Shown here: positions 22,524 to 25,202 of the stretch, piece after piece | Numbering within the stretch: position 1 is the first letter of the stretch | Layout: every line of letters begins with the position of its first letter | Assembly: GCF_056746865.1 (NCBI RefSeq) | Contig: NZ_CM163382.1 | Reading direction: 5' to 3' (one strand) | Length of the DNA stretch: 64,000 nt | Made by a program: the position numbers and the translations under genes | The notes under the pieces: model-generated | Told to the model about the DNA's origin: nothing | The model's database searches: none | What the model saw: only the letters and a program-made list of their open reading frames with translations

Positions 22524-23897
22524 TTAATGCGCTTTTACGGCTTTGGCGGTTTTCTCTTTAAACAGATAGCCGATACCTAACACGATCAGCCATACCGGGA
22601 TCAGGTATACCGAAATCGCCATTCCTGGGGTCATCAGCATAATCACCAGTACCGCCGCCATAAACAGCAGGCAGATCCAGTTACCCAGCGGATAAAGCAG
22701 AGCAGGGAAGCGAGTTACCACGCCTTGTTCCTGCTTGGCGCGACGGAATTTCATATGCGCCAGGCTAATCATCGCCCAGTTGATTACCAGTGCAGATACC
22801 ACCAGCGCCATTAACAGGCCAAATGCGGATTCCGGAGCAAGATAGTTAATCAGTACGCACAATGCCGTAACCAGCGCAGACACCAGAATAGTGTTAACCG
22901 GTACACCGCGTTTGTCGACAGACGCCAGCGCTTTTGGCGCGTTGCCCTGTTGTGCCAGACCAAACAGCATACGGCTGTTGCAATATACGCAGCTGTTGTA
23001 CACGGAGAGCGCAGCAGTCAGTACCACGATGTTCAGCGCATTAGCCACAAAGGTATCGCCCAATTCGTGGAAGATCAGTACAAACGGACTGGTATCAGCA
23101 GTAACGCGGGTCCACGGCATCAGCGAGAGCAGAACGGCTAACGAACCAATATAGAAAATCAGGATGCGGTAGATAACCTGGTTAGTCGCTTTTGGAATAC
23201 TTTGCTCCGGGTTATCTGCTTCTGCTGCGGTGATGCCCACCAGTTCCAGACCACCGAAAGAGAACATGATAATCGCCATCATCATCACCAGCCCGGTGAA
23301 GCCGTGCGGCAGGAAACCACCCTGATCCCACAGGTTGCTAACGCTCGCCTGCGGGCCGCCGTTGCCGCTGAATAGCAGCCAGCCGCCGAAGATGATCATC
23401 GCTACCACCGCGATAACTTTGATAATGGCAAACCAGAACTCCATCTCGCCAAACACTTTTACGTTTGTCAGGTTGATGGCGTTGATCACCACAAAGAACA
23501 CGGCGGCAGAAACCCAGGTGGGGATTTCCGGATACCAGAACTGAATGTATTTACCCACGGCAGTCAGCTCAGCCATGGCAACTAAAACGTACAGTACCCA
23601 GTAGTTCCAGCCAGAGGCGAAACCGGCAAAACTGCCCCAGTATTTATAAGCAAAGTGGCTAAAGGAGCCTGCGACAGGTTCCTCGACCACCATTTCACCT
23701 AGCTGACGCATGATCAGAAAGGCGATAAAACCAGCAATGGCGTAACCCAGGATAATCCCTGGCCCTGCGGACTGTATTACGGAGGCGCTACCCAGGAATA
23801 GCCCTGTCCCTATCGCGCCTCCCAGCGCGATAAGCTGTATGTGGCGGTTTTTAAGGCCGCGCTTTAGCTGCTCGCCGTGCTGTTGACCTTCCATCAT
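22524..23897 (-). CDS. aroP: Aromatic amino acid:H+ symporter AroP (APC family)
   Basis: 457-aa ORF, 12-TM amino acid permease (MMEGQQHGEQLKRGLKNRHIQLIALGGAIGTGLF). Confidence 0.95.
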   Translation of the reverse strand: MMEGQQHGEQLKRGLKNRHIQLIALGGAIGTGLFLGSASVIQSAGPGIILGYAIAGFIAFLIMRQLGEMVVEEPVAGSFSHFAYKYWGSFAGFASGWNYWVLYVLVAMAELTAVGKYIQFWYPEIPTWVSAAVFFVVINAINLTNVKVFGEMEFWFAIIKVIAVVAMIIFGGWLLFSGNGGPQASVSNLWDQGGFLPHGFTGLVMMMAIIMFSFGGLELVGITAAEADNPEQSIPKATNQVIYRILIFYIGSLAVLLSLMPWTRVTADTSPFVLIFHELGDTFVANALNIVVLTAALSVYNSCVYCNSRMLFGLAQQGNAPKALASVDKRGVPVNTILVSALVTALCVLINYLAPESAFGLLMALVVSALVINWAMISLAHMKFRRAKQEQGVVTRFPALLYPLGNWICLLFMAAVLVIMLMTPGMAISVYLIPVWLIVLGIGYLFKEKTAKAVKAH

Positions 23898-24390
23898 GAA
23901 ACCTCGTGCGGTGATTGTTTTTTTGATCTACGCAGTGATGCGTGTGTAAGTTTTCAATTCCGTTTGTTGTATTGATTTGTTTACATCAAAGAAGTTTGAA
24001 TTGTTACAAAAGGACTTCCGTCAGATCAAGAATAATGGTATGCGGCAGCGAATGCACCCGCTTTATGCATGGTTGAAGATGAGTTGCTTAAAAAGAAACC
24101 GTTTGTAAAGCTCAGCCTCAACCCCTCTCAATATGTATAATGAATTTAAATTCGTTTTAATTGAATTAAAAATCACAAAATTGGTAAGTGAATCGGTTCA
24201 ATTCGGATTTTTATAGTTTAATAATCGTTAAAAAACCCCTTTCCTACGTAAAGTCTACATTTGTGCATAGTTACAACTTTGAAACGTTATATATGTCAAG
24301 TTGTTAAAATGTGCACAGTTTCATGATTTCAATCAAAACCTATATGGACATAAGGTGAATACTTTGTTACTTTAGCGTCACAGACATGAA

Positions 24391-24405
24391 ATTGGTAAGA
24401 CCAAT
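24391..24405 (+). promoter_or_regulatory. PdhR operator (perfect palindrome ATTGGTaagACCAAT) in pdhR promoter region
   Basis: attggtaagaccaat 33 nt upstream of pdhR ATG; matches known PdhR box. Confidence 0.75.
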
Positions 24406-24437
24406 TGACTTCGGCAAGTGGCTTAAGACAGGAACTC

Positions 24438-25202
24438 ATGGCCTACAGCAAAATCCGCCAACCAAAACTCTCCGATGTGATTGAGCAGCAACTGGAGTTT
24501 TTGATCCTCGAAGGCACACTCCGCCCGGGCGAAAAACTCCCACCGGAACGCGAACTGGCGAAACAGTTCGACGTCTCCCGTCCCTCCTTGCGTGAGGCGA
24601 TTCAACGTCTCGAAGCGAAGGGCTTGTTGCTTCGTCGCCAGGGTGGCGGCACTTTTGTCCAGAGCAGCCTATGGCAAAGCTTCAGCGATCCGCTGGTGGA
24701 GCTGCTCTCCGACCATCCTGAATCACAGTATGACTTGCTCGAAACACGACACGCCCTGGAAGGTATCGCCGCTTATTACGCCGCGCTGCGTAGTACCGAT
24801 GAAGACAAGGAACGCATCCGTGAACTCCACCACGCCATAGAGCTGGCGCAGCAGTCTGGCGATCTGGACGCGGAATCAAATGCCGTACTCCAGTATCAGA
24901 TTGCCGTCACCGAAGCGGCCCACAATGTGGTTCTGCTTCATCTGCTAAGGTGTATGGAGCCGATGTTGGCCCAGAATGTCCGCCAGAACTTCGAATTGCT
25001 CTATTCGCGTCGCGAGATGCTGCCGCTGGTGAGTAGTCACCGCACCCGCATATTTGAAGCGATTATGGCCGGTAAGCCGGAAGAAGCGCGCGAAGCATCG
25101 CATCGCCATCTGGCCTTTATCGAAGAAATTTTGCTCGACAGAAGCCGCGAAGAGAGTCGCCGTGAGCGTTCTCTGCGTCGTCTGGAGCAACGAAAGAATT
25201 AG
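24438..25202 (+). CDS. pdhR: Pyruvate dehydrogenase complex repressor PdhR (GntR/FadR family)
   Basis: ATG at 24438 gives 254 aa [26 protein letters not shown]... with GntR wHTH; ORF track begins at upstream TTG. Confidence 0.92.

Follow-up and report, generated by a model that had tools for sequence, protein, structure and literature searches.

The 540-bp gap at positions 23898-24437 of a 64,000-nucleotide stretch of contig NZ_CM163382.1 (NCBI RefSeq assembly GCF_056746865.1; hereafter the window) is the exact interval between the divergently transcribed aroP and pdhR genes. According to the list of open reading frames, aroP (22524-23897, minus strand) encodes a 457-aa aromatic amino acid:H+ symporter, and pdhR (24438-25202, plus strand), which begins with an ATG at 24438, encodes a 254-aa pyruvate-sensing repressor of the GntR/FadR family. 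The aroP product shares 99.8% amino acid identity with AroP of Escherichia coli K-12 MG1655, the pdhR product is 100% identical to MG1655 PdhR over residues 1-228, and comparison with the same genome gives the gene order ampE-aroP-pdhR-aceE. The gap has a GC content of 34.8%, as against 51.1% for the window, and contains seven A/T runs of at least eight bases that lie mostly at 24143-24235. A first-pass annotation of this DNA had described a 540-bp AT-rich divergent aroP-pdhR control region with multiple AT-rich tracts, and both the description and all of its coordinates proved exact. Nothing is annotated within the gap in the 12 RefSeq genomes that were sampled or in K-12.

At the nucleotide level the gap matches that of E. 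coli strain 118UI completely (100% identity), and seven substitutions and no indels separate it from that of K-12 MG1655 (98.7% identity). The K-12 gap is likewise 540 bp long, at 121552-122091, and window coordinates are obtained by subtracting 97,654 from K-12 coordinates. All seven SNPs leave the consensus positions of the mapped sites intact; the two TyrR boxes have one SNP each, in the N6 spacer (strong box) and in the spacer (weak box), and a third lies in the -35 hexamer of the divergent promoter P3.

Conservation was assessed by phylogenetic footprinting on an alignment of 13 enterobacterial genomes from about eight genera. Divergent aroP-pdhR loci, with gaps of 524-593 bp, were found in 12 enterobacterial genomes among the matches listed. 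The comparison genomes were picked by an exact match to the 17-bp PdhR operator, and conservation of that box is therefore given by construction, whereas the other blocks are unbiased. In the alignment every element described below falls within a conserved block, and the blocks form two modules around an unconserved centre. On the aroP side the conserved blocks are the weak and strong TyrR boxes, AGAATAnTGnTA, (G)AATGCACCnGCTTTATG, and GAnGAGTTGnnTAAAAAGAAACCnTTTGTAAA; on the pdhR side they are TGAAtCGgTTCA, GTTT-N7-GTTAA, CATTTGTGCAnnGTTACAnnTTTGAAACGT, TTGTTAAAATGTGC, a near-invariant run at 24322-24377, and the PdhR box. The centre is a variable, very AT-rich spacer at 24110-24186, the least conserved part of the gap, which has almost no conserved columns and includes a strain-specific TATAAT at 24136-24141, the allele with T at 24138.

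The PdhR operator is the most clearly defined element of the pdhR module. The first-pass annotation had placed a perfect PdhR palindrome at 24391-24405; ATTGGTAAGACCAAT is indeed present at these positions, and the full extent of the palindrome is the 17-mer AATTGGTAAGACCAATT at 24390-24406, a perfect inverted repeat with a 3-bp centre that shows the operator pattern (A)ATTGGTnnnACCAAT(T) with its GGTnnnACC core. When the 64 kb were scanned for AATTGGTNNNACCAATT with up to four mismatches, 23 matches were recovered, the only one with zero mismatches being AATTGGTAAGACCAATT, and when the region was dinucleotide-shuffled 2000 times the palindrome did not recur once. Genomic SELEX (gSELEX) on K-12 found the same PdhR site at 122052, with top intensity and a 14/14 match to the consensus (PMC7660256). 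The box lies ahead of pdhR and spans +11 to +27 relative to the transcription start at 24380, which is why its centre falls at +19. Protection by PdhR is said to cover about +11 to +27 (Quail and Guest 1995). In a scan of one genome per species, the exact 17-mer was present at 120 loci at the least; among the matches listed, some 80 loci carry it near the beginning of a homologue of pdhR, including loci in Shewanella, Vibrio, Photobacterium, Pseudomonas, Marinobacter, and others, and in many Gammaproteobacteria it is placed immediately upstream of that homologue. A second PdhR site, suggested by the 10-mer AATTGGTAAG at 24179-24188, was rejected, as this sequence has no right half-site and is kept only within Escherichia.

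The promoter of pdhR-aceEF-lpd occupies 24345-24380 on the plus strand and consists of a -35 hexamer TGGACA (24345-24350), a 17-bp spacer, and a -10 hexamer TACTTT (24368-24373), with the start at the A of position 24380. The start had been mapped by 5′ RACE to an A that follows GTATGGACATAAGGTGAATACTTTGTTACTTTAGCGTCA and lies 58 nt before the ATG of pdhR (PMC2759082). Both hexamers are invariant in the 13 genomes. A simple sigma-70 promoter scan returned no matches and so missed this mapped promoter, because its -10 hexamer fits the consensus at only three of six positions. From the sequence, AGGA at 24430-24433 (plus strand) is the Shine-Dalgarno sequence of pdhR, and its AGG is conserved. 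In comparison with the pdhR promoter (Ppdh) of K-12, the -35 and -10 hexamers, the context of the start, the PdhR 17-mer, the FNR site, the second ArcA site, and the distance to the pdhR ATG are all the same; the difference within 24300-24437 is a single SNP at 24342 (A here, G in K-12), between the FNR site and the -35 hexamer, which alters no known element. The K-12 promoter and the PdhR operator are reportedly the subject of work by Quail and Guest (1994/1995), Ogasawara (2007), and Anzai (2020).

With regard to the upstream inputs of pdhR, the FNR site ATGATTTCAATCAA (24323-24336) has one mismatch to TTGAT-N4-ATCAA and is centred at 24329.5, that is at -50.5. FNR ChIP-seq in K-12 reported a peak at 121,987, a site at -50.5, and direct repression of pdhR-aceEF-lpdA (PMC3688515). 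The peak corresponds to window position 24333, and the consensus match, which was found independently, is centred exactly at the published -50.5. The best FNR-type match was equalled in 134 of 2000 shuffles (7%), and the TGATTTCAATCAA of the site is kept in 12 of the 13 genomes. ChIP-seq of ArcA lists two sites, at K-12 121868-121888 and 122007-122027 (PMC3798270 supplement), and both of the published 21-mers, each made of two 10-bp repeats with 11-bp spacing, are unchanged in the window. ArcA site 1, TAGTTTAATAATCGTTAAAAA (24214-24234, plus strand), covers -167 to -146, with its two direct repeats 11 bp apart and its GTTT-N7-GTTAA conserved; ArcA site 2, AGGTGAATACTTTGTTACTTT (24353-24373, plus strand), covers -27 to -7, overlaps the -10 hexamer of pdhR, and is invariant in the 13 genomes.

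Two overlapping 16-mers resemble CRP sites: TGTTAAAATGTGCACA (24302-24317; two mismatches to TGTGA-N6-TCACA, centre at -70.5) and TGTGCACAGTTTCATG (24310-24325; three mismatches, centre at -62.5). The best CRP-type match was equalled in 668 of 2000 shuffles (33%). Their common core TTAAAATGTGC is kept in about 12 of the 13 genomes, and one half-site alone, AAATGTGC, is conserved; either 16-mer is a candidate for the one that may be used. A palindrome of the Cra (FruR) type, TGAATCGGTTCA, lies at 24189-24200 (about -185) and matches both TGAAnCGnTTCA and TGAAWCSNTHHW perfectly, fitting the gcTGAAtCGaTTCAgc / TGAAWCSNTHHW motif. The pattern TGAAnCGnTTCA appeared in 3 of 2000 shuffles, a figure to be read in the light of the pattern having been picked after the site had been seen, and this core is kept in 11 of the 13 genomes. 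A second match to the Cra consensus, TGAAACGTTATA at 24280-24291, is included in the conserved block that begins with CATTTGTGCAnnGTTACAnnTTTGAAACGTTAT and extends over 24258-24300. CRP is listed among the regulators of pdhR. PMC5888115 places it as class II at the -35, gives ctgaAtCGaTtcag as the Cra motif, reports by ChIP-exo that Cra binds and represses pdhR-aceEF-lpd, and describes Cra as binding 'downstream of two promoters'. These descriptions of CRP and Cra do not obviously fit the candidate sites and the start at 24380; the Cra palindrome is treated here as a putative operator. Scans with 16-mer Cra, ArcA, and Lrp consensus sequences under mismatch limits were uninformative.

On the aroP side, the first-pass annotation had drawn attention to TGTAAG/TTTACA-like hexamers near 23950-23990 as possible TyrR boxes. 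TGTAAG (23945-23950) and TTTACA (23980-23985) lie within two TyrR-box-like 18-mers, the aroP-proximal weak box TGTAAGTTTTCAATTCCG (23945-23962), with four mismatches to TGTAAA-N6-TTTACA, and the strong box TGTATTGATTTGTTTACA (23968-23985), with two. Both boxes keep the G-N14-C signature and their centres are 23 bp apart. They are the published weak and strong boxes: the Pittard laboratory described an aroP-proximal weak and a distal strong TyrR box, both bound by TyrR (summarised in PMC7142922), and, according to a deletion series, it is the weak box that faces aroP and the strong box that faces P3 (PMC7142922). The match quality of the strong box was reached in 261 of 2000 dinucleotide shuffles (13%), and two or more matches as good occurred in 74 of 100 shuffles of the whole window, the observed count being equal to the expectation. 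Because the motif score is not above chance, the TyrR-box calls rest on conservation and on the published work. All 13 genomes preserve TGTA...TTTAC in the strong box (pattern TGTAtT..TtT.TTTAC), and 10-12 of them preserve TGTAA...ATTCC in the weak box.

Three promoters have been described at this end of the gap: P1, the major aroP promoter; P2, just downstream of it; and P3, a divergent promoter overlapping P1 (PMC7142922). P3 was located in the window by its published hexamers and lies downstream of the strong box, on the plus strand at 24011-24041, with a -35 hexamer AGGACT (24011-24016), a -10 hexamer TGGTAT (24036-24041), and an expected start near 24048 from which transcription would proceed towards pdhR. 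The same source gives TGGTAT as the -10 hexamer and AGTACT as the -35 hexamer of UTI89, two bases off that of K-12 (PMC7142922); the K-12 hexamer is AAGACT, and the G for A at 24012 moves the AGGACT of the window one step towards the UTI89 sequence. The earlier opinion that promoter positions could not be fixed without experiments did not hold for this region, where the pdhR start at 24380 and the P3 -10 hexamer at 24036-24041 had already been published for near-identical sequence.

A candidate core for P2 is found on the minus strand at 24000-24029, with a -35 hexamer TTGATC running from 24029 to 24024 and an extended -10 element TGTAACAAT from 24008 to 24000. These putative hexamers agree with the published statement that the UP element of P3 and the P2 -10 overlap (PMC7142922, legend to Figure 2). 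No convincing -10 hexamers could be fitted here to the '21 bp' spacing given for P1 and P2 (PMC7142922). The overlap of P1, on the minus strand, with P3, on the plus strand, occupies a conserved core at 24029-24067 in which AGAATAnTGnTA and (G)AATGCACCnGCTTTATG are nearly invariant. Upstream of P1, the block GAnGAGTTGnnTAAAAAGAAACCnTTTGTAAA at 24078-24109 is kept in 12 of the 13 genomes; AT-rich UP sequences have been mentioned for both P1 and P3 (PMC7142922), and 24078-24109 probably represents the UP-type, A/T-rich element that has been proposed for P1. As a separate observation, no factor could be matched to the conserved blocks at 24078-24109 and 24258-24279. Compared with the K-12 aroP promoters, the two TyrR boxes, the distance to the aroP ATG, and the P3 -10 hexamer TGGTAT are the same, and SNPs distinguish the spacer of the weak box at 23954 (T here, G in K-12) and the N6 of the strong box at 23974 (G here, A in K-12). 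The aroP promoters and their tandem TyrR boxes are said to have been worked out by Wang, Yang and Pittard (1997-98), and the TyrR regulon was reportedly reviewed by Pittard (2005). A terminator-like hairpin at 23929-23944, flagged by the terminator scan and considered as a conserved structure of the aroP leader, was set aside after RNAalifold on 10 orthologous leaders neither recovered it nor revealed covariation.

Binding of TyrR and activation of P3 have been reported, as has repression of aroP by TyrR that depends on aromatic amino acids in K-12, S. bongori, and UPEC (PMC7142922). The overlap of P1 and P3 and the competition for polymerase that it entails have been described (PMC7142922, PMC3167631), and TyrR with its cofactor bound is reported to recruit polymerase to P3 in a complex that excludes polymerase from P1 (PMC7142922, PMC3167631). 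In K-12, P3 is described as transcriptionally non-productive (PMC7142922).

The gap is also a site of variation within the species. Matches were obtained in 5423 complete E. coli genomes, of which 4363 have the greater part of the 540 bp and about 1060 match only the pdhR-proximal 26-35%; roughly 20% of the genomes lack most of the region, and the 61-bp centre is not detectable in 29%. In UTI89, window positions 24110-24186 are replaced by the 3982 bp of the usp island, PAIusp, which carries usp, a 1782-bp gene annotated tssD, and three bacteriocin-immunity genes. PAIusp invariably inserts between aroP and pdhR, P3 drives its transcription, and binding of H-NS beside P3 has been reported in island-bearing strains (PMC7142922). 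The aroP-usp region of UTI89, other B2 strains, and Salmonella bongori (PMC7142922) differs from the present one in having the island, which is absent here. As in the window, UTI89 retains the TyrR boxes with the P1/P3 core, the block at 24078-24109, the Cra palindrome, and the pdhR module in full. The UTI89 flanks beside the island are about 83% identical to the window, roughly as distant as Citrobacter, whereas the 190 bp adjoining pdhR are 98% identical, and this difference suggests that the flanks came in along with the island. CFT073 has an IS3-family element that borders the pdhR module near window position 24296. The strain studied here carries the ordinary, island-free allele of a textbook control region that has already been characterised.

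Judged by motif score alone, the PdhR box and the Cra core were the only elements to exceed chance; the TyrR, FNR, and CRP sites rest on conservation and the literature. The first-pass annotation had called for a scan with TyrR, PdhR, CRP, and FNR motifs and had held that its view of the region would fail if nothing but the PdhR box scored above threshold. The scan came close to that outcome, in that PdhR and the Cra-type palindrome stood out from the shuffles and the TyrR, CRP, and FNR consensus matches did not, the latter being rescued by conservation and by published ChIP-seq and footprints. Its statement that the region is densely regulated agrees with the published PdhR, TyrR, FNR, and ArcA sites and promoters.

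These scores leave room for the reading that the PdhR operator alone is real and that the sequences resembling TyrR, FNR, CRP, ArcA, and Cra sites arose by chance in AT-rich DNA: shuffled sequence equals the TyrR, FNR, and CRP matches as often as stated above, the number of TyrR-like matches in the window is the expected one, and the promoter scan is empty. Chance, however, would not keep these elements base for base in about eight genera while the neighbouring spacer DNA is not kept, nor would it centre the FNR match precisely on the site reported at -50.5, beneath a ChIP-seq peak; both ArcA 21-mers are moreover identical to the published ones, and TyrR binding and function at this locus have been published. 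This reading is consequently regarded as extremely improbable. The same conservation might instead reflect a small gene or a regulatory RNA that annotation has missed, such as a transcript from P3, which is a real promoter aimed into the spacer (PMC7142922); a terminator scan found none between P3 and pdhR, and no protein is assigned to the block at 24078-24109 or to that at 24258-24279. Yet a search of 23600-24700 against Rfam at E <= 1 gave zero matches, the 333-nt RNA from P3 to pdhR folds no better than shuffled sequence (z = -1.45), and the sole ATG frame after P3 (24069, 23 codons) is broken by stops in other genera. Taken with the empty annotation of the 12 RefSeq genomes and K-12 and the non-productive behaviour of P3 in K-12 (PMC7142922), this makes a hidden gene or RNA highly improbable as the source of the conservation.

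A further reading concerns the centre only and treats the AT-rich middle third as a neutral, H-NS-prone spacer and a target of recombination or integration, so that the gap would amount to two compact promoter modules and filler. It draws on the near lack of conserved columns at 24110-24186, on the replacement of just this segment by the usp island in UTI89, on the share of E. coli genomes that lack most of the region or its centre, and on the binding of H-NS next to P3 in island-bearing strains (PMC7142922). The gap is, however, held to 524-593 bp in the 13 genomes, so that the spacing itself may matter, and the flanking Cra site and ArcA site 1 are conserved although they lie far upstream of the pdhR start. 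We consider it a possible but on balance doubtful account of the centre, and one that is compatible with a shared control region rather than opposed to it.

The interval is almost certainly a regulatory region shared by two unrelated, divergently oriented transcription units and composed of two conserved modules and a variable AT-rich spacer. The present analysis itself establishes, for each element, the exact sequence and position together with the statistics and the conservation; the transcription start, the occupancy by proteins, and the competition between P1 and P3 are taken over from published K-12 experiments by virtue of identical sequence at these sites, and the following account is conditional to that extent. 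In the aroP module, at about 23940-24110, the two TyrR boxes lie downstream of the minus-strand promoters P1 and P2, and TyrR loaded with phenylalanine, tyrosine, or tryptophan would bind both of them. TyrR at the strong box would recruit RNA polymerase to the weak divergent P3 and, because P3 overlaps P1, polymerase held at P3 would keep polymerase off P1, making the module a repression-by-activation switch. It would share with other overlapping divergent promoter switches a core common to both promoters and a regulator that shifts polymerase from one to the other; aroP P1/P3 is already a cited textbook example of such switches, and nothing new is added to it here.

In the pdhR module, at about 24189-24437, the weak sigma-70/sigma-38 promoter TGGACA-17-TACTTT would drive pdhR-aceEF-lpd, and PdhR bound to the palindrome at +19 would block transcription until it is released by pyruvate, so that pdhR would be autoregulated. 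Anaerobic repression would be exerted by FNR at -50.5 and by ArcA-P at -27 to -7 and -167 to -146, and the carbon status of the cell would be conveyed by CRP near -62 to -71 and by Cra at the palindrome 24189-24200.

It is unlikely, though conceivable, that a regulator new to aroP and pdhR has its operators in the blocks at 24078-24109 and 24258-24279, or that in island-free strains transcripts from P3 run across the spacer into pdhR; read-through of this kind comes into consideration because no terminator was found between the two. If P3 transcripts did read through, aromatic amino acids would feed by way of TyrR into the expression of pyruvate dehydrogenase, and the Cra and ArcA sites would act as roadblocks that gate the passage.

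As a discovery the shared control region carries little weight, because every main element has previously been described in E. coli K-12. The analysis provides a base-accurate map of the published sites in the coordinates of this strain, checked against 13 enterobacterial genomes, and it illustrates that, where the A/T content is so high, genuine TyrR, FNR, and CRP sites cannot be separated from noise by simple consensus scans. The region is a compact example of repression through the recruitment of polymerase to a divergent, overlapping promoter, and equally of a regulatory gap that is also the integration site of a virulence island borrowing the resident promoter P3.

Two blocks of the aroP-pdhR gap (window 24078-24109 and 24258-24279, the latter with the sequence CATTTGTGCAnnGTTACA) are conserved in 11-12 of the 13 enterobacterial genomes aligned, and the first of these may be an UP-type element for aroP P1, the major promoter of the minus-strand gene. 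The aroP leader contains the inverted repeat TACGCAGTGATGCGTG (23929-23944), which adjoins a weak TyrR box (23945-23962). A conserved hairpin was considered here but was unsupported by RNAalifold, even though an ACGC...GCGT repeat is retained at this position in most genera. In Citrobacter sp. R56 (locus L045, 6052-6644), the aroP leader carries an additional GC-rich insertion of ~30 bp, beginning GGCGGCTTTGGCGCTGCCCGC, that is lacking in the other Citrobacter genomes and resembles a small palindromic element of the REP type.

On the pdhR side, the PdhR box (24390-24406) is found well beyond the enterobacteria. Among the listed loci of a one-genome-per-species scan (L004-L123), the exact 17-mer AATTGGTAAGACCAATT lies near the start of pdhR homologues, whose protein identity ranges from 41 to 72%, in genera that include Shewanella, Vibrio, Photobacterium, Pseudomonas and Marinobacter (for example, L005, L053, L070, L083 and L017). 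Some Shewanella genomes have the 17-mer at two or three additional loci among the matches listed, and two enterobacterial loci (L023 and L025) have an inverted central triplet in the box, CTT versus AAG. The left 10 bases of the box, AATTGGTAAG (24390-24399), recur exactly at 24179-24188, immediately abutting a Cra-type palindrome (24189-24200). The right half-site is absent beside this second copy, which is kept only inside Escherichia, and the recurrence may be due to chance.

The central spacer (24110-24186) is unconserved and includes a single-nucleotide polymorphism at 24138, where the window has T and K-12 has G, converting TAGAAT to a perfect TATAAT hexamer on the plus strand (24136-24141). 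The exact 61-mer surrounding the T allele is present in only 142 of the 3864 E. coli genomes that possess this segment; a search for a -35 element to match the hexamer found none. Any promoter created by the T allele would point towards pdhR.

Most of the 540-bp gap (23898-24437) is missing from ~20% of complete E. coli genomes. In UTI89, window positions 24110-24186 are exactly swapped for the 3982-bp usp/imu island PAIusp (locus L124, 2288-6269). In CFT073 (locus L003), an IS3-family element adjoins the pdhR promoter module at approximately 24296, so close that the CRP-like and FNR sites begin just downstream of this junction.

The intergenic DNA on either side of PAIusp (L124 2074-2287 and 6270-6340, compared with window 23898-24109 and 24187-24257) has only ~83% identity to the window, making these flanks about as distant as Citrobacter (79-87%), whereas the 190 bp of UTI89 beside pdhR that adjoin the island flank are 98% identical. 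This mosaic pattern of sequence identity suggests that the flanks were imported together with PAIusp through homologous recombination.
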